Below, piece by piece: positions 1 through 18,799 of a stretch of DNA of 37,996 bases (its first letter is position 1; each line of letters starts with the position of its first letter). A program made the position numbers and the translations under genes. The notes under the pieces were generated by a model that ran no database searches, was not told the DNA's origin, and was given only the letters and a program-made list of their open reading frames with translations. The stretch lies in contig CACYDS010000009.1 of assembly GCA_902773285.1 (NCBI GenBank), forward strand, positions 1-37,996, in the 5' to 3' direction. This DNA is from an uncultured Pseudomonadota bacterium. GTDB lineage: Bacteria > Pseudomonadota > Alphaproteobacteria > RUG11792.

Positions 1-124
1 ATGCAAAAATGAAACAGATGTTAGAACTCTCAATAGCCCTATTTCTGCATAGCAGAGAACTTTTTTGTTAATTTGTTTGGCAATCCCTGAACGCTTTATC
101 CATGACAGAAATAGTTAGGACTTG

Positions 125-133
125 TGATATAAT
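125..133 (+). promoter_or_regulatory. Candidate extended -10 element (TGaTATAAT) upstream of gyrA
   Basis: The sequence tgatataat at 125-133 lies about 34 nt upstream of the gyrA ATG. No convincing -35 was seen. Confidence 0.3.
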
Positions 134-166
134 TACTTATCAGGCGTGGATTATTAATACAAAGCA

Positions 167-2827: not shown

Positions 2828-2839
2828 TTTGCTAGGGAA

Positions 2840-3922
2840 ATGTTTACGATAGCCTTCAGATATATATTCAAAAGACTTGTAGTAACATTTTTCGTGGTTT
2901 CTCCAATCATTGTTTTTATGGCATGGATTGCGATGTCAATAAAATACATCGGATTGATTGCCTCTGGAGGTATTTCATTAACAACGTTTTTGAAGTTAAT
3001 TTTGTGTATATCCCCAGGCGTTTGCGGAATAATTTTTCCTGTATGTTTTTTGTTGTCAGCAGTAATCGCCATTTATGGTTTGCAATCAAATAAGGAGCTT
3101 ACAGTGTTTTTGAGCTCTGGAAAAAGTCCACTGTCTGTTTTGGTTCCAATTTTGTTTTGGGGATGTTGCATAGCTGGGCTTGTCACTTTTTGCAATACCA
3201 TAGGCGCGCCGCATGCCTATAAAAAGTTCGAAACTCTGAGAGAGAAAATATATACTGAAGTTTCGACAAATTTTCTAAAGGCACAATCATTTAATCTCGT
3301 TGGAGATTCGGTTATATATGTTGGTTCTCGTAATCATAATTCTGTAAATAACATATTCATATTTCATCTTTCCAAAAAAGACAATGCAATTATGAATATA
3401 ATAACTGCCAGGCATAGCTCTCTTATACACAGCGGTAACAATATATTGGTGCAACTGGACAATGGATGTAGGCAAGAAATCGATAAAAATGACGACATAG
3501 TGTCCACGTTAACGTTTGATAGCCTTACGTATGATATAACGCAATTTTTCCAAAGTTCTTATAAAAAATCCTCAAAGGTAAAACATAAGACACAATCGGA
3601 ATTGTTGCAAATTGCTCGGCATAGTCCGGAGAAAAAAGTGAGACAAAATTGTTTGGCAGAATATCATTCCAGAATATTGATTTCATTTTCTTCGATAATA
3701 AATGCTCTAATTGTCGGGATATTTTTGATATGTACTCGGGAACGCGCTCGTGGTAGCAAAGACGCAATATTAGCGTTTTCATTTGGAATAATCAGCCATG
3801 TTTGCCTCATGGTCTTGATGAATTTAGCAACAAAAAATAATAATTTAATAATTTTTAATTACACGGCAGTAAGCTTAGTTATCCTATTTCTCTACGTGTT
3901 TTTCGTACAAAGAAGGACTTAG
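2840..3922 (+). CDS. lptF: LPS export ABC permease, LptF/LptG (YjgP/YjgQ) family
   Basis: 360-aa polytopic membrane protein with the N-terminal FRYIFKR pattern and a central periplasmic domain. It is followed directly by a paralogue, as in lptFG pairs. Confidence 0.75.
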   Translation: MFTIAFRYIFKRLVVTFFVVSPIIVFMAWIAMSIKYIGLIASGGISLTTFLKLILCISPGVCGIIFPVCFLLSAVIAIYGLQSNKELTVFLSSGKSPLSVLVPILFWGCCIAGLVTFCNTIGAPHAYKKFETLREKIYTEVSTNFLKAQSFNLVGDSVIYVGSRNHNSVNNIFIFHLSKKDNAIMNIITARHSSLIHSGNNILVQLDNGCRQEIDKNDDIVSTLTFDSLTYDITQFFQSSYKKSSKVKHKTQSELLQIARHSPEKKVRQNCLAEYHSRILISFSSIINALIVGIFLICTRERARGSKDAILAFSFGIISHVCLMVLMNLATKNNNLIIFNYTAVSLVILFLYVFFVQRRT

Positions 3923-3924
3923 CA

Positions 3925-5010
3925 ATGTTTTCAACGCTAACGAAATACATCATAAAGAATTTTATCAAGAGTTTCATAGTTGTATTTTTATGTTTCTACG
4001 TAATCATCTCGCTTCTAGAGTTAATGGATGCTGTTCGACAATACTTTTCCGCAGGATATTCTCCATCGGTAACTCAAATTATGAAAATCACATTATGTCG
4101 TGCAACTGTGACAATTTGCACGTGCTTTTCATTTGCGGTATTGTTTGCAACAGTGATATTTTTCACAACGATGCACAACCATCTCGAGCTCAATATTATA
4201 AAAGGATCGGGTGCATCACCATATAAAATTCTACGTATGCTTTTTGTTGCGGTCTCTATCTTAAGCCTATCTTACATATCGGTTTTTGATACCTTATCCG
4301 TTTATTCATATAGAACGCAGGATATCAGCCTTGCAAAGCCACAATCTAAAGGTGAGAATTTAAGCGTTACCAGTAAAGGAATATGGTTTCGGGATATATG
4401 TGATAACAAATCTTACATAATTTATGCAAGGAATTTTGATCGTATCACTACTTCTTTGAATGGGATTAGAGTTTTTGAATTTGATGAGAAAGGCAACTTC
4501 GTAAATACGATACTGGCTCATTCCGCATTGATCAAGGATAACGTTTGGTATATACAACGTTGCAAAATAATTACGCGTAGTGGAGATACGATCAAGCAGG
4601 ATGTACATACATTGCCAACAAAACTTTCGTATAAAACAATTAACAAAATGGTGGCTGATCCTCACAGTATTTCTTTCTGGAAAATTATGAAATTAGCGAA
4701 TCTTCTTGAAAAAGTTGGTTTATCAAGTAGATCTTATCAGATGCACTGGTTTTTGCGCATATCTACGATATTACAAATATTTGCATTTGTAGCGATAGCT
4801 GCAGCATTTCTTATGCGGTATAACCATCGCGATCGTAAGCCGTATGTTCAAAAAGCCTCAGCTCTTATTGCCTGCGCCTTCCCTCTGCATTTTATCAATA
4901 ACATCATCCTCGCATACGGCGAGAATGGGGCTATGCCACTCTCAGTCTCAACTTTCCTAGTTCCAATAGCCACTTTGCTTGCGGGGATATTATTTCTGAA
5001 TGAAACGTAA
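3925..5010 (+). CDS. lptG: LPS export ABC permease, LptF/LptG family
   Basis: 361 aa. The N-terminal LTKYIIKNFIKSF pattern and the TM - periplasmic domain - TM layout fit the family. The start lies 2 nt after the lptF stop. Confidence 0.75.
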   Translation: MFSTLTKYIIKNFIKSFIVVFLCFYVIISLLELMDAVRQYFSAGYSPSVTQIMKITLCRATVTICTCFSFAVLFATVIFFTTMHNHLELNIIKGSGASPYKILRMLFVAVSILSLSYISVFDTLSVYSYRTQDISLAKPQSKGENLSVTSKGIWFRDICDNKSYIIYARNFDRITTSLNGIRVFEFDEKGNFVNTILAHSALIKDNVWYIQRCKIITRSGDTIKQDVHTLPTKLSYKTINKMVADPHSISFWKIMKLANLLEKVGLSSRSYQMHWFLRISTILQIFAFVAIAAAFLMRYNHRDRKPYVQKASALIACAFPLHFINNIILAYGENGAMPLSVSTFLVPIATLLAGILFLNET

Positions 5011-5023
5011 TTGATACTCCAGT

Positions 5024-5806
5024 CTAGTTCCCAACTGAAAATTTAACACCTATTGTATTGCAACCACAATCAACATGGATGATTTCGCCTGTAATTCCAG
5101 AAGCCAGATCGCTTAGCAAAAATGTACAAGCAGAGCCCACATCCTCACGTGTCACATTACGCTTCAACGGAGAACGATGTCTCTCGTATTCTAAAATTTT
5201 AGAAAATTCACCAACTCCAGATGCGGCAAGTGTTTTTATTGGGCCGGCAGAAATAGCGTTTACTCTAATCCCGAATTCTCCAAGGTCATCAGCTAGGTAT
5301 CTTACGCTAGTTTCAAGCGCAGATTTAGCCAAAGCCATTACGTTATAATTCGGAACCACTTTTTCGGCTCCATAGTATGTCATAGTTGCAAGAGCACCAC
5401 CGTGAGGCATCAATTTTTGCGCATATTTACAAACTTCAGTAAACGAAAAACACGAAACATTCATTGCATTTAAAAAATTTGCTCGAGAAGTATTGCAGTA
5501 TTTCCCGGTAAGTTCATTTTTGTCAGAGAAAGCTATTGAATGTACAATGAAATCAATTTCCCCCATCTCATCCGCAATTTTATTGAAAGTTTGTTCGATT
5601 TCCCCATCTTTCGATACGTCACACAAGAAGACATTGTGACCTCCGAAATCTCTAGCTATATCGGAAATTTTATCCTTAAAATACTCTGTTTGCGCCGTGA
5701 AAATTAGTTCTGCTCCCTGTTTTCTAAGTGCTTCGGAAATGCCGTAAGCTATAGAAAATTTATTTGCGAGCCCCATTATCAGGCCCCTTTTCCCCTGCAT
5801 AATCAT
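5024..5806 (-). CDS. fabI: Enoyl-ACP reductase (NADH) FabI
   Basis: GKRGLIMGLANKFSIAYGI N-terminus, SDR fold, and Y..M..K-type region (YNVMALAKSALE). The ORF track starts at a TTG at 5809. ATG codons at 5806 and 5800 are more likely starts. Confidence 0.92.
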   Translation of the reverse strand: MIMQGKRGLIMGLANKFSIAYGISEALRKQGAELIFTAQTEYFKDKISDIARDFGGHNVFLCDVSKDGEIEQTFNKIADEMGEIDFIVHSIAFSDKNELTGKYCNTSRANFLNAMNVSCFSFTEVCKYAQKLMPHGGALATMTYYGAEKVVPNYNVMALAKSALETSVRYLADDLGEFGIRVNAISAGPIKTLAASGVGEFSKILEYERHRSPLKRNVTREDVGSACTFLLSDLASGITGEIIHVDCGCNTIGVKFSVGN

Positions 5807-5950
5807 CAAACAAAACTTTCAATAAATCATTAATACTCAAATCGTATTAAAAATTAAGCATTCTTTCAATGTTTTGTGGCGATGATTAACGGAAAATTAA
5901 TCTTTATTGGATACCATTTCGATATGAATCTGAGTACAGTTACTTGAGTT

Positions 5951-6613
5951 ATGGCGAATTTGGGAGCAACGAGTTTGAGACATTACATGTCCGGCATTGA
6001 CGGTACAATTCCCGGAATTGGTGGATGTCCTTTTGATATGGATAAGTTGCAAAACGACTATGTCAATGGAGCGATAACCCCAAACAGAATAATTCACTTT
6101 ACAGGGGATGAGCTAAAGACAGACGTCAAAATGTCGCTTTCACCATTGAACGACTATGGCAATAAGGATCATGAAGTTCTTGATGTTATCGCTTGTTCTG
6201 GCTTTTACGAAACGTCGACTCTTAGTTTTAGAATACCAAATCTGCATAAGCCTGGTGCTGCTCGAGCCTCAGATGTTTGGGTTGTTATTCCGCAGAATAT
6301 CATTGTGCCGCAGTTAGTGAAAAAACTGCATCAGGGGGCTATTGATGGTATATACATCGCTACTTTATCATTCCTAAATGCTGGTGATGAAGATAAGCCG
6401 CAAGTCACTCAGGTGCATGACTATACAAGCTGTTTTATAAAATTTGTAGATTCGTTGAGCTATGGAGCCCTAGCAGTATTTGCATTTTCATTTGTCAGAT
6501 TAAAGATAACACAGCATGACTATAAGCAAATAAGTGAAAAAGGAGCTAATGGAGCGGGCGGACAATATGTCTACGAATTTGATTATAACGCAGCTCTTGG
6601 AAAAAAAGGGTAA
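5951..6613 (+). CDS. hcp: Divergent Hcp-like (type VI secretion tube) protein with an extra ~50-aa N-proximal insertion
   Basis: By eye it aligns to Hcp1-type sequences as I remember them. EVLDVIACSGF matches EEIDVLAWSWG. SDVWVVIPQNIIVPQLVKKLHQGAIDGIYIATLSFLNAG matches the DKSTPxL...G...L.IRKAG segment. The C-terminal FSFVRLKITQHDYKQISEKGANGAGGQYVYEFDYN matches LNFAQVQVDYQPQKADG...YGWN. An alternative start is the ATG at 5987 (MSGIDG). Confidence 0.6.
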   Translation: MANLGATSLRHYMSGIDGTIPGIGGCPFDMDKLQNDYVNGAITPNRIIHFTGDELKTDVKMSLSPLNDYGNKDHEVLDVIACSGFYETSTLSFRIPNLHKPGAARASDVWVVIPQNIIVPQLVKKLHQGAIDGIYIATLSFLNAGDEDKPQVTQVHDYTSCFIKFVDSLSYGALAVFAFSFVRLKITQHDYKQISEKGANGAGGQYVYEFDYNAALGKKG

Positions 6614-6618
6614 GCGAA

Positions 6619-7404
6619 TCATTCGCGCAAAAGTTCATTGAGACTCGTCTTGCTTCTGGTTTTTGCATCATTTTTTTTAACTATCACAGCGCAAGATATG
6701 TTAATTCCGCTCTTGCTTGGATAGGTCCCAGGAACTACGACAGAACCAGCTGGCACAACTCCGTATACAATTTCTCCGCTCTCTCGATCGATAATCTTGG
6801 TCGAAGCTGAAATTGATACGCCGGAGGCTATAACTGAATTTTCTTCAACGATGACCCCTTCTAGAATTGAACTATGTACCCCAATGAAACAATTGGCTTC
6901 AATAATCACTGGCCTTGCGCAGGCGGGTTCTAACACACCCCCAATAACGGATGACGCTGCGATATGACAATTTTTCTCAATTTGTGCGCACGAGCCAATC
7001 GTTGCATTGATATCAATCATTGTCCTTTCGCCAATATACGCGCCTACATTTATATAGCTAGGCATTACAACCGCGTTATCTCCGATATAAACTCCATCTC
7101 TAATTACGGCCAGGGGCACCTTTCTATATCGTGGATTATTATAATCATACGCCAAAAGCCCCAATTTGTCATAGCAATCAAAATTCTGCCGCATAGCCAA
7201 CTTTGTTTTAAAAGCTAGCAATATCGCCTCTTTTACCCATTGATTAACTATCCAACTTTTACCTATTTTTTCCGCTACGCGTATCTCGCCGGCATTCAGC
7301 AATTCAAAAATTTCATCTATAACTTGATTTACACGATCATCCGGAAGTTCGCCAATGCAGCATTTTTTTACTAATTCTTCATAACTGTTGAGCATATTGG
7401 GCAA
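6619..7404 (-). CDS. dapD: 2,3,4,5-tetrahydropyridine-2,6-dicarboxylate N-succinyltransferase
   Basis: 261 aa. It has an N-terminal helical domain followed by left-handed beta-helix hexapeptide repeats (IGDNAVVMPSYINVGAYIGERTMID...). Confidence 0.88.
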   Translation of the reverse strand: MPNMLNSYEELVKKCCIGELPDDRVNQVIDEIFELLNAGEIRVAEKIGKSWIVNQWVKEAILLAFKTKLAMRQNFDCYDKLGLLAYDYNNPRYRKVPLAVIRDGVYIGDNAVVMPSYINVGAYIGERTMIDINATIGSCAQIEKNCHIAASSVIGGVLEPACARPVIIEANCFIGVHSSILEGVIVEENSVIASGVSISASTKIIDRESGEIVYGVVPAGSVVVPGTYPSKSGINISCAVIVKKNDAKTRSKTSLNELLRE

Positions 7405-7673
7405 AATACTTACTACTCATTCTGACATTTTATCATATCCATCGCTCATCCAAATCAACTATGTATTTGGCTTAGACTTATCGCATTTAATCAAATCCAT
7501 AATGTTCCCTAAAAAACAACTAACTCGTGCAGCTATATCAAATTGCTAAAGTGGATCTTTCTTTATTTGTTTTGGAATAGCAAAATTTTTTCACGGGTTA
7601 ACATAATTTTAATAAATTCCCAATAGGCTAGGAAATAGAACGAGGAATACAAAGAGATGCTGGGGAGGATCTC

Positions 7674-10600
7674 ATGTCACGTACGTATCGATTACTGATT
7701 ATAATTTTATTGGGAATGTTACCAATATATCAGGCAGATGCTGGGGATAGTACGGATACAGAAGAAGTGGCTGGGAATTCATCAGAGGAATCGGAAGAGC
7801 CTGTCGAGCCTCAATTGTATGATTTTCATGATATTCTAACTCTAGAAGAAGGGTCGCAGGTGATTTTTGGCACCGGATTGTTTCGGAGTACGTCCGGACT
7901 TGTTAACTATACCAATAAGGTACAATTGCGTCCCAATTCAACATTGACGTTACGAGCTGGCGATGGAGAAAACACCGGAGTGTTCCACAATTATGGAAGA
8001 TGTGAGATGTATAAAAATTCCAAAATAACTGGCGGAGGAACGATTTTTGAACATGGACGGTTTGAAGATGACAATGCAAACAATGTCCGAGCATCTCAAA
8101 ATAAAGCTGATTATGAGCGAGGATACATAATTGACTACTACGATACTCAACAAGACCTCACGACAGATCAAGAAATTCAGAATGCCGCTTATTACGATTT
8201 AGTGAATAATGAAGATGCGCCTATACGAAAATTTAAGATTTATTACATGGGGTGTGGCATATTCACCACTTCTAAAGAACTCGGAGATCCTAGTATTCAG
8301 GCAACTGATTTTGCTGAAATTACTGATTCAATGAGGGGAACAGACAACCAGGGAAAAATAGATTCAAGTATCATCTTTAAAAGGGATGCCCTTGATTTCA
8401 ATCAAACAGCCGGCTCCATTGATACAGCTTACGATTTGAGAACGCTGTCAAATGACTATGGTTCGTTGGGAACGATACACATTTCTGACCAAACAGATGA
8501 TATTAAATCATCGTTCTTTTCAATACGTGGATTTGATACTGAAGACGCCGGGCATGACTGCTCAGGGACAGACGGCTCCACATATTTTAAATTTGGACGA
8601 AATTTAGACAGAGATGTTTGGGTTCCAAAGGTTGATGATAAGGTTGTGCTAGGAAAAACAATGCCAGACACAGAAAATGCCGCCGCATATGAGCAGGACA
8701 TTATGGATACGCTGAACACAAGTGCCGAAAACAATGACAATCTCTTTGCGTATAAGGATTGGGAGCCAAATGATCCAGTGACAACTTATCACGGAGACAA
8801 TTCGTGGTTTAATGGTGTTTATAAGTTGAAACGCGGAGCCATTATCGTAAAAAATACAGCAGGAATGTTTGGTGGACGAGTTGAGCTCGGAGATGCGGAT
8901 GTATACGAGAGCCCTACGGGAGCTGGCACTGGAACTTTGGCATTACATAGAGATTTAGTTGCAGGTAACGAAGATGCAAAAAATTTCATAAAAAATGTGA
9001 GGCCTACTGAATTTGAGTGGGAAGGTGGCGCGAAAGATGAATACAACAAGCCTGACATCTATATGAACGGTAACTCTACACTTTTCTTCAATTTGCAACC
9101 AGACCAAAACGGAAATCAGATATTTTCATTCTATGGAAACATAACTGGCACTGAACGAGATAGGCTGATATTTGAACAAGGAGAAGTCAGAATTAAGGGA
9201 GATTGCTCTGGCTTTAAAGGTAGCATTGCAGTGACTCCAGGGGCTAAGTTTGAAGTGAGAAGTAGCGATGCCGGAAGTAGTAGTACATACCAGGGAAAGT
9301 TTCCGAATGCGAATATATACCAAGTTTATGGCGCAGATGCTGGAGAAAATGCAGGAAAGTTTGTGACAAATCCGACAGCGGTAACGTCAGTAGATACTGC
9401 TACTATGGAGAATGTCACGATAAATAACGGTATCATGGAGCTGAACAATGCCGGCAGTGAAGATGGCGGGAAGATTACCTTAAAGAGCGCAAATATTGAA
9501 AGCACGGCGATGACGACATTGAACGATGAATCTAATATTAAAGATACAGTGATAAGAGGGGTGCTCGTTGCAAAAGGCGATATGACTGTCGAGAATACGA
9601 CTTTGGAAGGAGGTGTGCTCGTTCTAGACAATGCAACTTTGACAACAGATAACATGACGGCAGGATCTACGATTGCAAGTTGGGGAAATGGGAACTACAG
9701 GGATGTAGTAAATATTGGAGCTAACGTTGGTGCAGGAGCAGGGTATTTCCGCATTACTCAGCAGCATACTTTGAAGTTGTTTTCGGACTACAACGTTACT
9801 ACTGGCGAAGCTGATTACATAAATGTTGCTAACTCGGTTGCTAATATACAAACAGCTGGTGGTATAGCCGTCGCTGGTATGAACTTCAATGAAATGCCGA
9901 CAAATGACCAATATGTATTTAAGATATATGATGGTGCCGGTCACACAGATAATATGCCTGTTACCATCGGTGGCTCATACAATGGTGGCGATCCTGTATT
10001 TGATGTATATGTCAATGGGACTTTTAATCCGACTAATACCAATCCCATAAATGGTATAAACGCCGGTGGAATTGATAATGTAGGAGATACCAAATTAGAC
10101 TATAACGTTACAAATAATGCACAGAAAGTTACGACATACTTAGATAACGGCGTGCGCATTCTGGAATTCGGCAATGGAAACATATATAAAGTCGAAGGCC
10201 AGTCCGCTGGGCGATATGGAAATGTTGTTCTTACGAAATATCTTACCGATAGATCCGTTGTTGCGGACGTTGTCCAAAGTGGCGCCATTAGCTCTATTGC
10301 GCTAAACATTGGAGATACAATATCTGATGCAGATGACATTTTAAACTCATCGATTTTCTCAAATAGTGAAGCTGCCTTGTTAGATTCTGAGGTAAAAACG
10401 CGAGGAACTTCTGGCGGCACTTCATCCACAAACGAAGAATCCCAAACAGAGAAGCATCATAGAAATGATGCATTACCGCTTTCAGAGAAAAAAACTAAAA
10501 AATATAGGATTTGGAACAAAACTTTTGGAGAGCATGACGCAATTGACTTGCGAGGAAGTAGCAATATGAGCATGAATGAAGCAGGAACAATTCTAGGATT

Positions 10601-11294
10601 TGACAGCGAAGATATGAAATTCAATTCGTTTGGGTATGATACGATGCTGAGGCCTACAATTTTCCTGGGACTTCAACACAATAATCTTAGGTATAAAGGC
10701 GATAAATATGGCATCAATGGTTATTTTGGCGGCGCCAAAGCATCACTGTATGCCAAAAATCAGGTTCTTGAAGTGTTTGGGCTATATGAACAATTCAACA
10801 CCAGAGCTACGTTGCCAGCGAATTACTCAGGTTCATATCAAAAAATTAAGGCTAAGACCCATATATTGAATTTGGGGGCAAAATATGCCATAGACGTTAA
10901 ATTACACCAAAACCTATATATTCGTCCTAATGTATCCTTGGGCTATGCATTTATGTGGTCTCCTGCATTTACTGGATATAACGAAGCTAGTCATAAATTG
11001 CGCAATCGCCATATGATTTCTGTGGCGCCTGGCGTTAGCCTTATTCGAAGGCAGGGAGATTGGCTCATTCGAGGATTTGTAGCATATCATCGCAAATTCG
11101 GCACGAAAGGGCGAACGAAAGCGACAGGAGTGTCTATGAAAACAGATCTGACCAAAAAGAGATTCTTAGAATATGGAGCGGAAGTCACAAAAGATAATAT
11201 AGCTAACAACACAAGCGCGAGCCTAAAACTATCAAGGAAAACCTTTGGTATCCGCGGATTTAAGGCAACGATATCTGTCGGCATAAAGTTCTAA
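7674..11294 (+). CDS. Large autotransporter outer-membrane/surface protein (type Va)
   Basis: A GGAGG RBS lies 7 nt upstream. There is a Sec signal peptide (MSRTYRLLIIILLGMLPIYQADA|GD), a ~900-aa Asn/Gly/Thr-rich passenger, and a ~280-aa C-terminal beta-barrel-like domain with alternating hydrophobic strands ending in a terminal Phe (ISVGIKF). Confidence 0.85.
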   Translation: MSRTYRLLIIILLGMLPIYQADAGDSTDTEEVAGNSSEESEEPVEPQLYDFHDILTLEEGSQVIFGTGLFRSTSGLVNYTNKVQLRPNSTLTLRAGDGENTGVFHNYGRCEMYKNSKITGGGTIFEHGRFEDDNANNVRASQNKADYERGYIIDYYDTQQDLTTDQEIQNAAYYDLVNNEDAPIRKFKIYYMGCGIFTTSKELGDPSIQATDFAEITDSMRGTDNQGKIDSSIIFKRDALDFNQTAGSIDTAYDLRTLSNDYGSLGTIHISDQTDDIKSSFFSIRGFDTEDAGHDCSGTDGSTYFKFGRNLDRDVWVPKVDDKVVLGKTMPDTENAAAYEQDIMDTLNTSAENNDNLFAYKDWEPNDPVTTYHGDNSWFNGVYKLKRGAIIVKNTAGMFGGRVELGDADVYESPTGAGTGTLALHRDLVAGNEDAKNFIKNVRPTEFEWEGGAKDEYNKPDIYMNGNSTLFFNLQPDQNGNQIFSFYGNITGTERDRLIFEQGEVRIKGDCSGFKGSIAVTPGAKFEVRSSDAGSSSTYQGKFPNANIYQVYGADAGENAGKFVTNPTAVTSVDTATMENVTINNGIMELNNAGSEDGGKITLKSANIESTAMTTLNDESNIKDTVIRGVLVAKGDMTVENTTLEGGVLVLDNATLTTDNMTAGSTIASWGNGNYRDVVNIGANVGAGAGYFRITQQHTLKLFSDYNVTTGEADYINVANSVANIQTAGGIAVAGMNFNEMPTNDQYVFKIYDGAGHTDNMPVTIGGSYNGGDPVFDVYVNGTFNPTNTNPINGINAGGIDNVGDTKLDYNVTNNAQKVTTYLDNGVRILEFGNGNIYKVEGQSAGRYGNVVLTKYLTDRSVVADVVQSGAISSIALNIGDTISDADDILNSSIFSNSEAALLDSEVKTRGTSGGTSSTNEESQTEKHHRNDALPLSEKKTKKYRIWNKTFGEHDAIDLRGSSNMSMNEAGTILGFDSEDMKFNSFGYDTMLRPTIFLGLQHNNLRYKGDKYGINGYFGGAKASLYAKNQVLEVFGLYEQFNTRATLPANYSGSYQKIKAKTHILNLGAKYAIDVKLHQNLYIRPNVSLGYAFMWSPAFTGYNEASHKLRNRHMISVAPGVSLIRRQGDWLIRGFVAYHRKFGTKGRTKATGVSMKTDLTKKRFLEYGAEVTKDNIANNTSASLKLSRKTFGIRGFKATISVGIKF

Positions 11295-11304
11295 GGGAAA
11301 AGGT

Positions 11305-11324
11305 GAATGGACTATGCTCCATTC
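11305..11324. terminator. Short hairpin between the convergent autotransporter and HExxH genes
   Basis: gaatgga-ctatgc-tccattc forms a 7-bp stem. The flanking U-tracts are weak on both strands. Confidence 0.3.
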
Positions 11325-11329
11325 AAGCC

Positions 11330-11989
11330 TTATTTCATCAAATAATCCATTAACTCATGAAAATTTTGAGGAGTTAACTTTGCGGGTTGTTCCGTTGAAA
11401 TTTTACGCAACACTTCAGGTATAGAGAGCTTTTGTTCGTGCAATTTTATTGCATTGTATAAAGCATATATGTGGTTAGACAAATCTGTATATTCTCTATG
11501 TTGAAACTCTTCTTTTATTAATTCATCTGAACAATTTGCATATTGTTCGCTTACCTCATCATAATCATACAATCGTAACACCTCCAGCGATTGCAGCGAT
11601 TGTCGCATATCTGTTACATTTTGCTTCTTCACCAACAAATCCGCCAAACAAGTTGAAACTAATATTCTGTATATTTCCCAAAGTCTCAATGCCTTGCTGT
11701 AATCAAATATCGTTTCAATATACAGCGAAAAAAGCTCAGGATTTGAATTTCCGGTCCTTGTTTTTGTCTTTACCATCCAAGCATGTTCTATCATATGGGC
11801 AATTTCATGTATTAGGAAAACCTCAGCATCTGTAGTCGACATGTACGTTAATTTTAAGCAGTAGTTATCAGTGATTTTCTCCGGATCCATAAATCTCAAT
11901 TGGATTTTTTTAAGCCACTCTTCATATTTTTGTTGATCTTGAGGATCATCAAACTTATATTTTTCCTTTTCTGCATCAGCTTCAGTCAT
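11330..11989 (-). CDS. Hypothetical protein with an HExxH metallopeptidase-like motif
   Basis: 219-aa ORF with an ATG start. Its only recognisable motif is FLIHEIAHMIEHAW (HExxH followed by E-H). There is no signal peptide or TM segment. Confidence 0.55.
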   Translation of the reverse strand: MTEADAEKEKYKFDDPQDQQKYEEWLKKIQLRFMDPEKITDNYCLKLTYMSTTDAEVFLIHEIAHMIEHAWMVKTKTRTGNSNPELFSLYIETIFDYSKALRLWEIYRILVSTCLADLLVKKQNVTDMRQSLQSLEVLRLYDYDEVSEQYANCSDELIKEEFQHREYTDLSNHIYALYNAIKLHEQKLSIPEVLRKISTEQPAKLTPQNFHELMDYLMK

Positions 11990-12198
11990 GCGTAAAAGCT
12001 CGGCGGCATCAGATACTTCACTGTGGATCGCCTAATCTATGTATGAATTCTTCGCCTCATCATCCTCGTTTTCATATACATATAATTCCATCCATCTGCC
12101 TTTACTCTCAATTTCCTTAAAATCAGTCGGGGACGCACAAATCTTTGTGTTTATTGGGCTTTTTTGTAAATTCTACACATTCAGATTACTGGTGTTCG

Positions 12199-12555
12199 TT
12201 AATGCGTTTCAAACCAACATATAGCATCATATCCATTGTCATACTCAGGTTGCTGTTCTCTGGCTAGTTTCTCATAATAACTTGCTTTCTCTGCTTCATT
12301 CAGTTCTTCAGAATGCTCTGGATCTAGATATACAACACCAGAGCTCCCCGGCTTGATTATCCGCAAATACGGCGGGACGTCCTCAAGCCCATACGAAATG
12401 ACGTCTACACACGATCCTGAATCAACTGTCCATTCAGCATATGTAAATTCCGTCTTAGCAATTGCTCTTTCAACAACTCCTATCAGATACTCTCCAATCT
12501 CTCCACTATCTTGGAGCAATTTTTTATAAAAGTCTTTAGCCCTATTTTTTACCAA
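12199..12555 (-). CDS. Hypothetical protein, possibly the 3' remnant of a decayed longer gene
   Basis: 118 codons open with no ATG anywhere, so the ORF-track start is a TTG. The same frame continues upstream through three stops to an ATG at 12810. Confidence 0.35.
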   Translation of the reverse strand: MVKNRAKDFYKKLLQDSGEIGEYLIGVVERAIAKTEFTYAEWTVDSGSCVDVISYGLEDVPPYLRIIKPGSSGVVYLDPEHSEELNEAEKASYYEKLAREQQPEYDNGYDAICWFETH

Positions 12556-12864
12556 AGATCAATCTATTTCTGCTTCTGGTTAGCTACTATTAGTCAATTT
12601 TTCAATCTTTTTTCTTGTTTGTTCTAACGGCAGTAGCAGGCAAAGCATCTGCCTCACGTCATCGCTAATCCACTTATACCTACTTTTGTTGTCCTAAAAG
12701 AACTTTACCGGGTCTTTAGCGAACAACTTAAATTCACTATCCATAGTGTGGCAAGTGGCCACACAGCACAACACAACCAATAATCTCAATATACCCCTGA
12801 TATTCATCATAAAGTTCAAAGCTATAAAAACACCCGTCAGTATTATAACTTGTAAAAAGCTCTC

Positions 12865-12894
12865 TGTCACTCAATATTGTTATGAGCTTATACA
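12865..12894. repeat. Solo copy of the IS-type terminal inverted repeat seen at 26629-26921
   Basis: tgtcactcaatattgttatgagcttataca. Its terminal 17 nt, tgttatgaGcttataca, differ at one position from 26905-26921 (tgttatgaActtataca). Confidence 0.5.
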
Positions 12895-12909
12895 GGATAC
12901 GAAAAAAGT

Positions 12910-12939
12910 TTGACTGATTTGAAAATTTTGTGTTATCAT
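12910..12939 (+). promoter_or_regulatory. Candidate sigma70-type promoter of the tRNA(CAU) gene
   Basis: TTGACT (12910-12915), an 18-nt spacer, then TATCAT (12934-12939). It ends 13 nt before the mature tRNA 5' end. Confidence 0.45.
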
Positions 12940-12952
12940 TTTTGCAAAGAGT

Positions 12953-13029
12953 GGGTCTTTAGTTCAGTTGGTTAGAACCCTCCGCTCATAACGGAGTTGT
13001 CGTAGGTTCGAGTCCTACAGGACCCACCA
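12953..13029 (+). tRNA. tRNA with CAU anticodon (elongator Met or lysidine-dependent Ile2; not distinguishable by eye)
   Basis: The cloverleaf was folded by hand. Acceptor GGGTCTT/AGGACCC, D stem GTTC/GAAC, anticodon stem CTCCG/CGGAG with loop CTCATAA, T stem GTAGG/CCTAC. CCA is encoded. Confidence 0.9.
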
Positions 13030-13045
13030 ATTTTCGCTGAAATTT

Positions 13046-13636
13046 TTATAAAGTGAGTGCGGTTTTTATGCTCGTAGGAATGGGCTCGTTTGATACTGCT
13101 GTCAGGTCCGTTAGCGTGGCTAAGACTTTACATCTTGAAAAATGCTCTATTGTATCAATTAGCGTCGTGTTGCCGTTCAAGATGATACCTAAGATATCAA
13201 TGTTCCGTGCTCTTAAAACCCCGATGGTCAAGAATATATGATTTAAAAATCCTAATTTAGATTTCGCCACTATTAATGCCTTTGCATTCAGAAAATTGAT
13301 TAAATCAGCCATCATTATGTTTTTGGTAATTGGCACGAGAGCGCCGCCGGCCCCTTCAATCACTGTATTATTTGGGGGGCATTGTCTCTTTATGGTATCT
13401 ACATCAATATCTATTCCTTCAAGATGTGCCGCATCATATACCGATAGTGGCGCCTTCAGTCTATATGCGTTAGGAATAATATGTGTTGTCGGAGAAAACT
13501 GAATGATTGTATTAGCATCCGAATCATCACCGGTCTGTATCGGCTTAAAATAGGAAGCCGCAGTATTTTTGCAGATCCATGCAGAAGTTATTGTTTTTCC
13601 GATATCTGTATCAGTCCCTGTGACGAATATATTCAT
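13046..13636 (-). CDS. bioD: ATP-dependent dethiobiotin synthetase
   Basis: MNIFVTGTDTDIGKTITSAWI is a P-loop-type BioD N-terminus. EGAGG is also present, and the 196-aa length is typical. Confidence 0.88.
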   Translation of the reverse strand: MNIFVTGTDTDIGKTITSAWICKNTAASYFKPIQTGDDSDANTIIQFSPTTHIIPNAYRLKAPLSVYDAAHLEGIDIDVDTIKRQCPPNNTVIEGAGGALVPITKNIMMADLINFLNAKALIVAKSKLGFLNHIFLTIGVLRARNIDILGIILNGNTTLIDTIEHFSRCKVLATLTDLTAVSNEPIPTSIKTALTL

Positions 13637-13689
13637 GCAGCACCTTGCTCGAAACTATATCTCTTATCTTATCAAAGAACAGAGCAATG

Positions 13690-14025
13690 TTATTTGCTAA
13701 TACAACAAGGCATAACAAAAAACGCTATAAGAGAATCACGCGTGGCAGTAGCTGGATCTAATTGTCCAGATTTTATCGAAAGTTCATTATTAATCACGCG
13801 TTGAAATATCTCTTGTTGTAATTTCGCACCTAGCCCACCATTTATCAACCTTTTTTCCAGGATTTTATGTATAAGCATTGCGTTTGCGGAAGCTTCGGTT
13901 TCATTTAATCCATCGTTTAGAGTGATAGAAGGGAAATTTTTAGACACAGCCATTGATGGCTTCTTTTCTTTCTCGGGCAAAGTATCATGAAGCTGTCCGA
14001 AAATATCATTTTGCATAATCTTCAT
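13690..14025 (-). CDS. Hypothetical 111-aa protein, translationally coupled to tssG
   Basis: The ATG lies 2 nt after the tssG TAG. No TM segment, signal peptide or recognisable motif was found. Confidence 0.5.
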   Translation of the reverse strand: MKIMQNDIFGQLHDTLPEKEKKPSMAVSKNFPSITLNDGLNETEASANAMLIHKILEKRLINGGLGAKLQQEIFQRVINNELSIKSGQLDPATATRDSLIAFFVMPCCISK

Positions 14026-14027
14026 AA

Positions 14028-14999
14028 CTAAACACTCTCTGTAAAAAATGCACTTTTGGAACTGTGCATCCCGAATATAAATGTATTCTTATTTAAACTA
14101 TTATCTCCATTAAGCAATGTTTCCTTCACTAGGCATTTATCCAAAAAGAAATGGAGCTTGACAGCAACACCATGTGGAACGTAAAGGCATATGATTTCCT
14201 TCATTTTTTGAAGAGCAGAAAACGTTTGATCTTTTGAATATTTTTTGGGCAGAAACTTTGCATACTGCTCAAAATCCAAAGCCCCAATTAAAACCGTTAT
14301 ACCTTTCGTCGCATCCCAAATTTTATCTCCCAATAGACAGGTTTTCCCCAATTTATTATGCCTCCCTTTTTTTCCAATAGACATCCGCTCTCCGAGAGGA
14401 GCTTGTATAAAACCGCCCTCAAATTGGCGAATTTCTATTGGCACTTTAAAAAAGCTTTCTAGAATAGCTTTCAAACCAGCACTAGATCTCGTGCGACGCC
14501 AAAACAAATTTTGAACAGAAACCTTAAATTGTTCCGGGATCATCCCGGCTTTTGACTTCATATTTAATTCTAATCCAGATAAGCTAAAAATTATGTTTCC
14601 TATGACAGAATTTTCAATCGGGCTTGACAGGGTTTCAATATTTTGACGTTTCAAAAACGCATATCTTAGCGAAAGTATTTTGCTATTGTATATATCAAAA
14701 TAATCGTACAACGCACCGCGTGTTGTACGCTCATAACTTAAAAACTCTTCTGTATAACTGTCTGGTATTGGACTTTCAATTCCAACAATACCATTCATAT
14801 TCACATGTATCTCCGCAAGGCCATCTTTTATGCCCTCAACCTTTGAGACGTCTATGTACTTCGATGTATAATTCACGTTTGATTTGATGTCGACAAACTT
14901 AATTTCGCATCTTTTTAGCGCAACATCTAACGCCTTCACAAATGAGAACTTTTCAGCCTCATATATAAATCTTTCTAAAAGTGAATCAGCCTTTGCCAC
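14028..14999 (-). CDS. tssG: Type VI secretion baseplate subunit TssG (ImpH/VasB family)
   Basis: 323 aa with a GTG start. FSFVKALDV matches the F.Ff.avrlLe start. The segment VNMNGIVGIESPIPDSYTEEFLSYERTTRGALYDYFDIYNSKILSLRYAFLKR matches the GL.G..GpLP..yTe...r.r..d.al..FlDiFnhR...LfYrAW core. RRTRSSAGLKAILESFFKVPIEIRQFEGGF...LGDKIWDATKGITVLIGALDFEQYAKFLP matches the C-terminal TssG pattern. Confidence 0.8.
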   Translation of the reverse strand: MAKADSLLERFIYEAEKFSFVKALDVALKRCEIKFVDIKSNVNYTSKYIDVSKVEGIKDGLAEIHVNMNGIVGIESPIPDSYTEEFLSYERTTRGALYDYFDIYNSKILSLRYAFLKRQNIETLSSPIENSVIGNIIFSLSGLELNMKSKAGMIPEQFKVSVQNLFWRRTRSSAGLKAILESFFKVPIEIRQFEGGFIQAPLGERMSIGKKGRHNKLGKTCLLGDKIWDATKGITVLIGALDFEQYAKFLPKKYSKDQTFSALQKMKEIICLYVPHGVAVKLHFFLDKCLVKETLLNGDNSLNKNTFIFGMHSSKSAFFTESV

Positions 15000-15031
15000 T
15001 TAAATCCCCATCCGGCATCTGATAAAAAAAT

Positions 15032-15108
<77 letters not shown>

Positions 15109-15126
15109 ATATTCCTTGTTAACCCT

Positions 15127-15155
15127 ATTATATATCGTTCAATTGCTAGGCACAA
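15127..15155 (-). promoter_or_regulatory. Candidate promoter of tRNA-fMet
   Basis: On the minus strand: TTGTGC (15155-15150), a 17-nt spacer, then TATAAT (15132-15127). This is 18 nt upstream of the mature tRNA 5' end. Confidence 0.45.
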
Positions 15156-15206
15156 CAAAATTTATAATTTTTTTCAGATGCAAATTAATATTAACACCAT
15201 TACACT

Positions 15207-15252
15207 ATTCCCCCTGGATGCACCATAACAAAGTGCATCGGGGGAATTTTTT
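15207..15252 (+). terminator. Strong intrinsic-terminator-like hairpin with a T-run on the plus strand only
   Basis: attccccc(tg)gatgcac - cataacaaa - gtgcatc gggggaat, followed by TTTTT. That is 8 + 7 bp of stem with a 2-nt bulge. It lies 33 nt downstream of the minus-strand dsbA-like stop, but the U-tract is on the plus strand. Confidence 0.55.
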
Positions 15253-15284
15253 GCTCAAAACTCAATTAACTCAGAGTAATTTTT

Positions 15285-16079
15285 TTACTTTATAACTGAT
15301 TCTATAGCTGGAAGCAACTGTTCGGCAGAGGAAAGACGCAACATTGTTGCCTTACCATCCTTTAATGTAAATATTGCAGGCACTAACGGCAATTTCATGC
15401 TCTCGGCCAATCTGCCATTTTCTGCCAACTTTTTATCGCAATCATCCATCATACCTTCTATTTCCTTATTATCCAAACCGGCTGCTTTCAACGACGATTC
15501 GATGAATTTCTTGTCTATATCTCCCTTGCTTGAAGTCACATGCTCAATAAACTTTATGGCCTTTTCTGCACTTTTCTCGTATACGGCCAAATAGACCTTT
15601 GCAAGAGTTACAGAATCGTTGCCCAAAACCGCGACAGGAAGCACCTTAAAGCACAGATCCTTCTTTGCCTTCACTAAGTTCAACATTTGTTTTTGTATCT
15701 CGACGCAGGCTTTCTCCAATGGATCGATGAAACAAATCACTGATGCCTTGGATTCAAGCTTCCCAAACTTCATAGCTAATTTAGTAATATCTGCACTTTT
15801 ATCGGATACAGTCTGTTCAATTTTTTTCAATTCATCCTCGCGCTGTTTTGCTATTCCCTCTCCCATAGCATTCATAACAAGTTGAGGATTTTGTTTTACT
15901 GTATCAACTATTATACCTCGGACTTTTTCATCAAAAGTTGCGCTTTCAGCCACTGATGATGGCTTCTTGGGGCAAAAATATGCGGCAGACGCCACTATTA
16001 ATGCCAAAATAGACACGATTATAGAAGCTTTACAACCGCATCCAGAACATTTTTGTTTGTTTTCCATAAATTTTTCCAA
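15285..16079 (-). CDS. DsbA-family (COG1651-like) thioredoxin-fold protein with a degenerate active site (ExxC instead of CxxC)
   Basis: The layout is an N-terminal anchor, a helical linker (VKQNPQLVMNAM, compare YL..NPE), then a thioredoxin fold. ICFIDPLEKAC sits where VEFFDYNCGYC is expected. LVPAIF sits where the cis-Pro GTPAFV motif is expected. Confidence 0.6.
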   Translation of the reverse strand: MEKFMENKQKCSGCGCKASIIVSILALIVASAAYFCPKKPSSVAESATFDEKVRGIIVDTVKQNPQLVMNAMGEGIAKQREDELKKIEQTVSDKSADITKLAMKFGKLESKASVICFIDPLEKACVEIQKQMLNLVKAKKDLCFKVLPVAVLGNDSVTLAKVYLAVYEKSAEKAIKFIEHVTSSKGDIDKKFIESSLKAAGLDNKEIEGMMDDCDKKLAENGRLAESMKLPLVPAIFTLKDGKATMLRLSSAEQLLPAIESVIK

Positions 16080-16238
16080 AAAAACAACTAGGTCTACATA
16101 ACTTCATCTTATAACAAATTTGCCCGAATCCATAAATAAATCTCATAAAGGAAGATGTTTTTCACAAGATGCATTCGCACCCTTAAACGCACCAGATATG
16201 ATATACTACAAATAGCGGCAGTTTTTTGAGCTTATATC

Positions 16239-17135
16239 ATGATTTCGTACGTCATCATTGCAGTTGTATTGTTGTTAGTTTGCAGCACAATCTTCATTGT
16301 GGATCAGCAAACTTGCGCAATCATAGAGCGGCTTGGCAAATTTCAAAGACTTGCCTACCCAGGACTAAATTTTAAAATTCCATTTATTGAAAACAAGCGC
16401 GCAAGTCTTTCAATGCGGATACATCAGCTTGAAGTGGTCGTGGAAACAAAAACTAAGGATAATGTGTTTGTTAAGGCGGTTATCGCTGTACAATACAGAG
16501 TTCTTCAGTCGAAAATTTATGAAGCATTTTATATGCTCCAGGATCCAGTTGGACAAATAACATCATTTGTCTTTGATTTAGTGAGAGCGCAAGTGCCAGC
16601 TATGGACTTAGATGACGTTTTTTCTCGCAAAGACGATATAGCAGATGCAGTAAAAGAAGAGCTTGAAACGCCAATGGCTGATTTTGGGTATGAGATCATT
16701 AAGGCTTTAGTAACAGATATCGACCCGGATGCTAATGTCAAATCCGCTATGAACGAAATAAATACCGCCCAAAGATTGAGAGTGGCCGCCACAGAAAAAG
16801 GGGAAGCCGAAAAGATTTTAAAAGTAAAACAAGCTGAAGCCGAGGCAGAAGCTTGTATTCTACACGGAAAAGGTGTTGCTGGTCAGAGGCAGGCGATTAT
16901 AGAGGGTTTATGTCAATCTGTTGATGAATTTGTAAAGCAAACTGGAACGACGCCGGCACACGTGATGGATATGGTTTTGCTAATACAATACATAGATACA
17001 TTAAAGGATATAGGCTCAAATTCGAAATCGAGTGTGGTGTTTGTTCCTCATAACCCAGGAAATTTTTCATCGCTAGGAGAACAGTTGCGTGAAACAATCT
17101 TCGCATCTGATCTTTTGAAAAACTCAAAAAAGTAA
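16239..17135 (+). CDS. SPFH/Band 7 (stomatin/prohibitin-like) membrane protein
   Basis: N-terminal TM segment, then IVDQQTCAIIERLGKFQRLAYPGLNFKIPFIE. The C-terminus has a coiled-coil with an AEAEAEA stretch. Confidence 0.85.
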   Translation: MISYVIIAVVLLLVCSTIFIVDQQTCAIIERLGKFQRLAYPGLNFKIPFIENKRASLSMRIHQLEVVVETKTKDNVFVKAVIAVQYRVLQSKIYEAFYMLQDPVGQITSFVFDLVRAQVPAMDLDDVFSRKDDIADAVKEELETPMADFGYEIIKALVTDIDPDANVKSAMNEINTAQRLRVAATEKGEAEKILKVKQAEAEAEACILHGKGVAGQRQAIIEGLCQSVDEFVKQTGTTPAHVMDMVLLIQYIDTLKDIGSNSKSSVVFVPHNPGNFSSLGEQLRETIFASDLLKNSKK

Positions 17136-17161
17136 CGGATCACGATCTCAACAAGCAGGAT

Positions 17162-18469
17162 TTAGCGTCGCAATAAGTCCATAGCGCTTACCTTTTTGTT
17201 CGCAAGTTTCTTGGACATAACGCGTTTCAACATTTCAAAATCTTTAATAAGACGATTAACATCCACCACTTCTTGAGCGCATCCCTTCGCTATCCTGCGA
17301 CGTCTTGACGCGTTTAACATCTGAGGATTACGACGTTCTTCTTTTGTCATAGCCCGTATTATCGCTAATTGTCGGAACGGTATTTTTTCGGAGAACGCTG
17401 GTCGGTCAAGTTGTGCTTTAAGTTTACCCATACCCGGCATCAATTTCATAAGTCCGTGCAAACCACCAATCTTTATCAACTGCTCAAGATATGCCTCCAT
17501 GCTTTCCAAATCAAACTTGTTGTCTACAGTTTTCTGCAAACTAGCCTGATCCAACGAACGTGTTTTCTCCATCAGGCCCGGCATGTCTCCCCGATCCAAT
17601 ATCCTAGAGGCAATGCGTTTTGGATCAAATTCTTCAATATCAGAGATTTTTTCTCCAGTACAAATGTATTTGATTTGACAATTTGCTACATACTTCGCGG
17701 AAAGAACCGCTCCCCCTTTAGAATCGCCGTCCATCCTTGTAAAAATCAAACCTGTTAGCTTAGTCGCATCGTTAAACGACCTAGCCATATTAACTGCGTC
17801 CTGCCCCATCATACCGTCTACGACGAGAAGTAACTCATTAGGTTGTATGACCCTCTTCAATGAAATTACTTCATCCATCATACTCTCATCTATGTGTAAC
17901 CTACCCGCTGTATCGTATATGATAATGTCATACTTATCCTGAATGCTAAGGGATTTTTTGGCAATATCTATAGGGGTATCGCCCGGCAAAAAATCGTCGA
18001 AAAAATCTATGGAATTGTTATTAGCTAATACTTTTAATTGTTCTATGGCTGCTGGACGATAAGTATCCAGAGATACCAGCAAAACTTTTCTTTTAAACTT
18101 ATTTTGAAAAAGATTTGCCAGTTTTGCAGAAGTTGTCGTTTTTCCAGTCCCCTGGAGTCCGAGCATCAAAATTTTTCCTCGTCTAAAGCTTGAGTCATTG
18201 TCAGAGCGTCCTAGAAATGCAACAAATTCATCGTATACAGCTTTCAATACGGTTTGCTCCGGAGTTATACTATTCAGGATTTTTTGTCCTGCTAATTTTT
18301 CCTTGAGTTTTGCAGTAAAATCTTTAACTACCGGCAGAGCAACGTCAGCATCTAGCAAAGAAATTCGGATTTCTTCTATCGTGGAATTTACTATTCCTTC
18401 AGTCAGTATTCCTCTTCTACCTATTTTCCTTATGATTGAAAGTAATTTATCAGACAGATTTGAGAACAT
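17162..18469 (-). CDS. ffh: Signal recognition particle protein Ffh
   Basis: MFSNLSDKL... N domain, GLQGTGKTTT P-loop, DTAGR motif, and a Met-rich M domain (LMKLMPGMGKL). Confidence 0.95.
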   Translation of the reverse strand: MFSNLSDKLLSIIRKIGRRGILTEGIVNSTIEEIRISLLDADVALPVVKDFTAKLKEKLAGQKILNSITPEQTVLKAVYDEFVAFLGRSDNDSSFRRGKILMLGLQGTGKTTTSAKLANLFQNKFKRKVLLVSLDTYRPAAIEQLKVLANNNSIDFFDDFLPGDTPIDIAKKSLSIQDKYDIIIYDTAGRLHIDESMMDEVISLKRVIQPNELLLVVDGMMGQDAVNMARSFNDATKLTGLIFTRMDGDSKGGAVLSAKYVANCQIKYICTGEKISDIEEFDPKRIASRILDRGDMPGLMEKTRSLDQASLQKTVDNKFDLESMEAYLEQLIKIGGLHGLMKLMPGMGKLKAQLDRPAFSEKIPFRQLAIIRAMTKEERRNPQMLNASRRRRIAKGCAQEVVDVNRLIKDFEMLKRVMSKKLANKKVSAMDLLRR

Positions 18470-18799
18470 AGATATTCCTCGGAAAAAACGTTACAACCAT
18501 TGTTTTCAATAGTCTATTATACCCCGCGCTGAAAATGCAAAATGTTTTCTGAGCAAAAACGTATAACTCATTGGAGTAATTTTGCATATTTTCTGCCAAT
18601 GACATGATCATATTTAGGATTCCACCTAAAATCTATATTTTTAGAAATATCTGTTAAAAAGTTGTTAAGGAGGCTAGGCTAAAAATTAGCTAATACCAGT
18701 TACCACACAGCTCAGCAATTCCTATTTATAGATTTGACTAGATAAGCATTGTGGGGTAAACTGAGAACTGGGGCAAAAGATTGTTTTGAGGGAGATGCG

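Follow-up and report, generated by a model that had tools for sequence, protein, structure and literature searches.

The closest described counterpart of the genes reported here is the Holosporales type VI secretion system (T6SS). In the Bodocaedibacteraceae, Paracaedibacteraceae, and Caedimonadaceae, the core genes of this system are found at at least four locations in the genome (Midha et al. 2021; PMC8163844). The T6SS genes of Ca. Bodocaedibacter were shown to be transcribed, and in the complete genome of Ca. Bodocaedibacter vickermanii they form one dispersed set, in which TssF-TssG occupies a single locus and a contiguous cluster is absent (PMC8163844). Published sub-clusters are tssF-tssG (CPBP_00125/126) and tssB-tssC-hcp (CPBP_00985-987) (PMC8163844). 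According to a 2025 review, almost all Holosporineae have a conserved T6SS, which is kept even in the smallest genomes; it was described there as "non-standard", with TssD and TssJ apparently missing (PMC11909080). The stretch of DNA analyzed here, referred to as the window, is the entire contig CACYDS010000009.1 of 37,996 bases from an uncultured rumen bacterium. It carries a tssG gene and, 7.4 kb away (from position 6613 to position 14028), a gene for an Hcp-like protein.

The two genes are probably two separately placed pieces of the dispersed T6SS known from the Holosporales. One piece would be a unit consisting of a tRNA-fMet, tssG, and an open reading frame (ORF) of 111 amino acids (aa), here called p111; the other would be a single-gene locus for a very divergent Hcp tube protein of 220 aa (Table 1). 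In that case TssG would act as the central subunit of the wedge in the baseplate, and its partners TssF, TssE, and TssK would be specified by genes at other places in the genome. Hexameric rings of the 220-aa protein would be stacked into the inner tube which, upon being expelled by the TssBC sheath, would deliver effectors into the eukaryotic host.

The initial annotation considered a scattered layout to be unusual, whereas it had already been reported for Holosporales at four or more loci (PMC8163844). The window resembles the systems described by Midha et al. (2021) in that it belongs to the same order, has core genes split among housekeeping genes, encodes a PF06996-type TssG, and comes from a reduced, host-associated genome with eukaryote-like effector candidates. 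The splitting over several loci among housekeeping genes holds for tssG and hcp in the window and in all relatives read. These related loci, labelled L001, L008, L034, and so on, amount to ~390 kb; they are the flanks of tssG and hcp only and say little on whole genomes. Unlike the published systems, tssG occurs without tssF in the loci of which the flanks were read and is paired with the 111-aa ORF instead. The Hcp of Ca. Bodocaedibacter, compared by description, is a 174-aa member of the "Hcp1-like superfamily" according to InterProScan, whereas the protein in the window is 220 aa long, is encoded by a single-gene locus, and is invisible to the family libraries.

The assignment of tssG made in the initial annotation was borne out. 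Its product matches the Pfam family PF06996 (T6SS_TssG) with an E-value of 1.5e-40 and a score of 139.8 bits (cutoff 24.6), over positions 35-296 of the 304 positions of the profile. Against NCBIfam TIGR03347 it scores 134.8 bits, slightly short of the equivalog cutoff of 143.3. Identity to the annotated TssGs of plasmid-located T6SS clusters is 22-27 % over 80-98 % of the length, and PF06996 was found in all of the TssG homologue clusters (26/26). Judged by its sequence, the ORF encodes a genuine TssG. In canonical clusters and in the published Holosporales genomes tssG is located directly downstream of tssF. This is not the case in the window, where an initiator-like tRNA-Met, so called by eye from a comparison with the E. 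coli type, and a DsbA-like gene are located upstream. No tssF-sized ORF (~600 aa) is present beside tssG in the 14 related loci examined, and the neighbors of tssG that were tested in related loci are housekeeping genes. Blastn alignments to L001, L010, and L034 extend through the tRNA-Met to position 15108 of the window.

The feature overlooked in the initial annotation is p111. It adjoins tssG in most of the related loci whose sequence continues beyond the stop codon of tssG, with TssG identities there as low as 44 %, and the tssG-p111 pair recurs in 18 metagenome-assembled genomes (MAGs) from the rumen and from termite and mouse guts. The conserved unit is thus tRNA/tssG/p111, in which p111 is probably co-transcribed with tssG. 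No family match of p111 was obtained in Pfam or PHROGs. Its AlphaFold2 model (predicted local distance difference test, pLDDT, 71) consists of a disordered N-terminus followed by a helical bundle and had no match in the PDB below an E-value of 1. With neither a family match nor a structural match, its identification as TssE, PAAR, or another known part was rejected. p111 is a candidate T6SS accessory protein that would work with TssG.

Two side observations concern the surroundings of tssG. The gene upstream of the initiator-like tRNA specifies a membrane-anchored DsbA/DsbG-like protein of 264 aa with a thioredoxin fold, which remains below the Pfam and NCBIfam cutoffs. A protein that is 91 % identical to it adjoins tssG also in L008, which is the rumen MAG RUG14374. 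In the rumen lineage with a 144-kb contig (L034, L010), tssG-p111 is located inside a run of ORFs without a Pfam match; in L034 these are ORFs of 285, 361, 431, and 267 aa upstream and one of 343 aa downstream. The ORFs of the L034 run could be effectors or unrecognized T6SS parts.

The Hcp-like call of the initial annotation stood as far as the fold is concerned and failed at the level of the sequence family. No match of the 220-aa protein to any family in Pfam, NCBIfam, or PHROGs was found, and profile searches of PDB sequences gave nothing significant. Pfam scans of sets of 22 and 27 relatives did not reach significance either. An AlphaFold2 model made with 22 homologues as input (pLDDT 70.5; predicted template-modelling score, pTM, 0.71) shows a beta-barrel with one flanking helix. 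When this model was compared with the PDB using Foldseek, the top 50 matches (50/50) were Hcp proteins or Hcp fusions, with E-values from 1.7e-7 to 4e-4; the best was Hcp1 of A. baumannii (4W64; E 1.7e-7). The target-normalized template-modelling (TM) scores of the Hcp matches are 0.58-0.73, at a probability of 1.00 and a sequence identity of 10-16 %. The predicted barrel and its single flanking helix can be superposed on the Hcp1 structures of A. baumannii (4W64), P. aeruginosa (1Y12), and B. pseudomallei (4TV4). Unlike these, the protein in the window, modelled as a monomer, is some 50-60 residues longer and has a conserved N-terminal extension and a low-confidence loop (residues 86-105). 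Francisella IglC, an Hcp-like protein of comparable length, was not among the top 50 PDB matches. Phage tail tubes have this fold too, but a library of viral structures that includes them gave a best E-value of 2.1e-4 and target-normalized TM-scores of 0.33-0.48 for the leading hits, which are weaker than those of Hcp. An identity as a phage tail tube or a tube of an extracellular contractile injection system is disfavored by this weaker structural match, the lack of a PHROGs hit, and the housekeeping neighbors.

The family to which the 220-aa protein belongs is small. When 1.84 billion representative proteins were searched with a profile, only 34 clusters were retrieved, all named members of which are designated "hypothetical protein" and come from Holosporales or Alphaproteobacteria MAGs; the family occurs in the same kinds of samples as tssG-p111. 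Its members are 190-235 aa long, ~50 residues above canonical Hcp. The Pfam family with the most member hits is PF05638, which is weakly matched by 3 of 27 members (best E 0.011), while no match between the members and the NCBIfam Hcp models was seen. In an hhalign comparison with seven canonical Hcp sequences, an E-value of 0.0022 and a probability of 13 % were obtained over 134 collinear columns covering nearly the whole Hcp domain, and the invariant P120...G129 stretch of the family was placed on the helix region of canonical Hcp; no match was obtained with a single canonical Hcp. Conservation in the subgroup to which the window belongs is highest in an N-terminal extension, DGTIPGIGGCPFDMD.LQ.DY, which is not confidently placed in the model. 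The name Hcp-like is therefore used for the predicted fold and not for the sequence family. The gene stands alone among housekeeping genes in all eight genomic contexts (8/8). In view of the apparent lack of TssD noted above, the family may be the missing TssD of the T6SS in these lineages.

Near distant members of the family, two further observations were made. Divergently upstream of the Hcp-like gene, two distant lineages carry one gene for a histidine kinase and one of the HTH_3/response-regulator type; the pair, which is absent from the window, may regulate it. Furthermore, L030 encodes a MORN_2 (YwqK-type) repeat protein of 180 aa, and a distant Hcp-like gene is located ~4 kb away. In the T6SS loci published for Holosporales, vgrG is accompanied by YwqK genes (PMC8163844).

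The initial annotation had proposed that both genes are under selection, and analysis of the ratio of nonsynonymous to synonymous substitutions (dN/dS) agrees with this. The contrast with decaying neighbors that had been offered as an argument for it has no evidence behind it. Compared with L008, the closest relative, dN/dS is 0.098 for tssG and 0.077 for p111; four housekeeping genes on the same syntenic block gave values of 0.04-0.08. The hcp-like gene shows no nonsynonymous changes at a dS of 0.129 when L001 is compared with L010, nor were any found when L001 was compared with L034. In the comparison with L026, the proportion of nonsynonymous differences (pN) is 0.062 at a synonymous proportion (pS) of 0.83, at which synonymous sites are saturated. 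More than 18 genomes, with TssG identities of 44-86 %, all carry these ORFs in intact form. tssG, p111, and the hcp-like gene are under purifying selection, and simple decay is excluded by the combination of a dN/dS of ~0.1, like that of the housekeeping neighbors, and intact ORFs. The Hcp-like proteins of the window and of L001 are 86 % identical and their TssGs 63 %; the stronger conservation of the former fits an abundant structural protein.

The 7.4-kb distance between the two genes agrees with the coordinates given in the initial annotation, and the presence of dapD, bioD, and a tRNA gene between them was confirmed by Pfam/NCBIfam and ARAGORN. This spacing is incidental, as the region is composed of two syntenic blocks joined by a genome-specific segment of 5.4 kb. 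Positions 95-7469 (gyrA to dapD, including hcp) are collinear with L039/L040 at 83 % nucleotide identity, and positions 12895-18547 (the tRNA, bioD, p111, and tssG to ffh) are collinear with L008, also at 83 % nucleotide identity. Nothing aligns with the segment in between at the L039/L040 or the L008 junction. A conserved hcp-tssG linkage was rejected for the window since the close relatives L039/L040 carry other genes after dapD, namely mlaE, an ATP-binding cassette (ABC) transporter gene, hisS, and trmD. The adjacency of hcp and dapD is also seen in L004-L007 and L039/L040, and in the distant L037 the two are no more than 2 kb apart, making dapD a long-standing neighbor of the hcp-like gene. 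A separate linkage over 4 kb exists in L001, L010, and L034, where tssG-p111 is followed by one ORF, pnp, and hcp. In L037 hcp is near both dapD and pnp, and an old shared neighborhood of hcp, dapD, and pnp is possible.

The genome-specific segment contains three ORFs. The largest, specifying a protein of 1206 aa, had been labelled an autotransporter, for which the searches gave no support beyond features of its N- and C-terminus. No homologues of this protein were found in Pfam, NCBIfam, PDB sequences, or by tblastn against plasmids, and it forms a singleton cluster. The other two had been described as decaying; both turned out to be intact and without relatives. The tRNA at the start of the second syntenic block could be an elongator tRNA-Met or a tRNA-Ile2. 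The coordinates of all features are given in Table 1.

Table 1 Features of the window and of related loci discussed in the text
Feature	Sequence	Position	Strand	Basis or remark
hcp-like gene, solitary, 220 aa	Window	5951-6613	+	Hcp/TssD tube fold of AlphaFold2 model
dapD (context)	Window	6619-7404	-	NF008808 at 3.7e-89
Genome-specific segment, not part of the T6SS	Window	7470-12894		5.4 kb; absent from relatives at both junctions
1206-aa protein, secreted or outer-membrane-like	Window	7674-11294	+	Signal-peptide-like N-terminus; outer-membrane-like C-terminus (...GIKF)
219-aa ORF	Window	11330-11989		Intact; no detectable relatives
118-aa ORF	Window	12199-12555		Intact; no detectable relatives
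tRNA-Met(CAT)	Window	12953-13029	+	ARAGORN; marks start of block syntenic with L008
bioD	Window	13046-13636	-	Pfam and NCBIfam
p111, conserved 111-aa ORF	Window	13690-14025	-	Starts 2 bases downstream of tssG stop codon
tssG, T6SS baseplate wedge subunit, 323 aa, GTG start	Window	14028-14999	-	Pfam PF06996
tRNA-Met(CAT), initiator-like (context, not part of the T6SS)	Window	15032-15108	-	ARAGORN; 32 nt upstream of tssG
DsbA/DsbG-like protein, 264 aa	Window	15285-16079	-	Below Pfam and NCBIfam cutoffs
Ubiquitin C-terminal hydrolase-domain protein, 568 aa	Window	18749-20455	+	PF00443, PF13423
355-aa ORF	Window	36661-37728	-	Sub-threshold resemblance to Shiga-toxin B subunit
Histidine-kinase and HTH_3/response-regulator pair	L032	7809-9521
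Histidine-kinase and HTH_3/response-regulator pair	L033	2199-3911
Histidine-kinase and HTH_3/response-regulator pair	L037	7981-9758
Histidine-kinase and HTH_3/response-regulator pair	L038	3323-5100
MORN_2 (YwqK-type) repeat protein, 180 aa	L030	9585-10127
ORF run containing tssG-p111	L034	3575-11572		ORFs without Pfam match
ORF run containing tssG-p111	L010	4556-12501		ORFs without Pfam match

A search by tblastn with a canonical set of 12 T6SS proteins, including TssA, TssB, TssC, TssE, TssF, TssH, TssK, TssM, DotU, and Hcp, detected only tssG in the window and the ~390 kb of related loci. The intergenic gaps of the window contain no ORF of more than 61 aa. The initial annotation had seen no other T6SS core gene in the 38 kb, and Pfam scans, the tblastn search, and the ORFs in the gaps all concur. 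Neither tssF nor any other core gene was found beside tssG or hcp in the relatives among the ORFs scanned; neighboring ORFs of 589, 606, 527, 440, 431, 361, and 343 aa and others proved to be housekeeping genes or had no match.

A contiguous cluster of the canonical type is present on plasmid pL11-A of Pseudoroseomonas cervicalis (L036). This T6SS-i cluster of ~21 kb has the order tagH-tssK-dotU-tssL-tssM-tagF...hcp-tssH-tssA-tssB-tssC-tagJ-tssE-tssF-tssG. Its TssG is homologous to that of the window (22.9 % identity over 94 %) and the Hcp fold is common to both, with tssG the only gene of the cluster for which a counterpart was detected in the window. In obligate host-associated alphaproteobacteria of the Rickettsiales, the rvh type IV secretion genes are spread over several loci and the system is nevertheless functional. 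Although the initial annotation drew this analogy, rvh is another machine, which has no components in common with the T6SS.

Several observations weigh against assigning the two genes to a dispersed T6SS. TssA, TssB, TssC, TssE, TssF, TssK, TssL, TssM, and VgrG were not seen in the window or in the related flanks, the tssF that adjoins tssG in published genomes is absent, and in no locus read does the Hcp-like gene lie beside tssB-tssC as it does in the published tssB-tssC-hcp sub-cluster. The 220-aa protein passes no sequence-family test, and the confidence of its model is moderate, the pLDDT of residues 1-24 and 86-105 being less than 50. An alternative is that this lineage might have lost the remainder of its T6SS, with tssG, p111, and the Hcp-fold gene as slowly decaying leftovers or as genes co-opted for a new function, for which the lack of any further T6SS gene in the window and the related flanks and the breaking of both published sub-clusters would speak. 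The strong purifying selection on ORFs that are intact in more than 18 genomes rules out decay, not co-option. The baseplate wedge consists of TssE-TssF2-TssG plus TssK, and we know of no function for TssG alone, outside the TssE-TssF-TssG-TssK wedge. As the T6SS is moreover retained in even the smallest Holosporineae genomes (PMC11909080), a relic or a co-opted remnant is considered quite unlikely, and we infer that the remaining core genes are located elsewhere in this genome.

If they are, they might still form a contiguous cluster of which the two genes in the window are extra, orphan paralogues. Other bacteria commonly have orphan hcp and vgrG genes, and the scan of the genome employed peptide patterns specific to this TssG family, which are blind to a second, canonical tssG. 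On the other hand, orphan tssG genes are not a phenomenon known to us, and the 18 MAGs gave one tssG locus apiece. Strong selection on spare baseplate genes would not be expected in a reduced genome. Given also the complete Ca. Bodocaedibacter genome, with its one TssF-TssG locus and no contiguous cluster (PMC8163844), this explanation is highly improbable. A different objection concerns the 220-aa protein only, which might have the tail-tube/Hcp fold in another role than that of a T6SS tube; it might, for example, be left over from a phage tail, a tailocin, or a gene transfer agent, or serve as an Hcp-like chaperone, its nearness to tssG being coincidental. None of the Hcp sequence families includes it, its gene always stands alone and away from sheath genes, ~45 conserved residues at its N-terminus have no equivalent in canonical Hcp, and its proximity to tssG is not kept in close relatives. 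Against this, the top 50 PDB matches are all T6SS Hcp proteins, with phage tail tubes giving E-values ~1000-fold worse and lower TM-scores. No PHROGs match was obtained and no phage gene is immediately around the hcp-like gene in the loci read, while PF05638 is the Pfam family with the largest number of member hits. The protein is more conserved than TssG, as expected for an abundant structural protein, and a second, independent nearness to tssG, over 4 kb, exists in L001, L010, and L034. A non-tube identity is thus unlikely; the Hcp-like protein presumably forms a tube, and two pieces of a dispersed Holosporales T6SS remain the probable interpretation of the window.

The host genome is placed within the Holosporales, as an uncultured gut (rumen) lineage, on the basis of the titles of the MAGs of its relatives: the closest relatives of TssG, the Hcp-like protein, and p111 are in MAGs titled Holosporales bacterium or uncultured Alphaproteobacteria, obtained from rumen, termite gut, and mouse gut, and relatives of the proteins of the window also occur in MAGs with the title uncultured proteobacterium. 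The host bacterium is probably a protist symbiont. The window has a G+C content of ~39 % and is densely packed with mostly housekeeping genes, which are, in contig order, gyrA, lptF, lptG, fabI, dapD, bioD, ffh, rseP, bamA, tgt, rplI, the L25 gene, pth, a polyamine-type ABC transporter, truB, rpsO, fabD, fabG, trxB, and a peptide-chain release-factor gene. Outside the tssG/hcp region, all ORFs at least as long as the 89-aa S15 gene have a housekeeping Pfam match, except for one of 355 aa; an ORF of 78 aa is the other one there without a housekeeping Pfam assignment. Residues 78-120 of the 355-aa product weakly resemble the Shiga-toxin B subunit, below threshold (Pfam SLT_beta, E 0.0092; phrog_851, E 0.0014). 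The 568-aa protein contains a eukaryote-type ubiquitin C-terminal hydrolase (deubiquitinase) domain (PF00443, 1.1e-21; PF13423, 8.2e-18) and is, from this domain assignment, a candidate host-directed effector.

The scattered nature of the Holosporales T6SS is already known, and the gain made here is incremental. New are the unannotated Hcp-fold family, the conserved partner of tssG, and a layout that is more fragmented than those published. A more far-reaching proposal, which is put forward tentatively, is that the 220-aa family is the functional "missing" TssD/Hcp of the Holosporineae, at least in gut lineages, that p111 is a new, lineage-specific subunit associated with the baseplate, and that the T6SS, with its single-gene loci, is more atomized here than in any published case. 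If this is true, p111 would have arisen when tssG was uncoupled from tssF, and the 220-aa family would represent a form of Hcp which carries a conserved extension at the N-terminus and escapes Pfam and NCBIfam. Among the means by which Holosporales symbionts may manipulate their protist hosts, the T6SS is the leading candidate. An Hcp-fold family now labelled "hypothetical" would close the gap of the missing tube in gut-associated lineages and would improve inventories of secretion systems in MAGs. The loci also indicate that single T6SS genes can stay under strong selection after complete loss of their operon context, which bears on the way in which multi-protein machines are regulated in reduced genomes.

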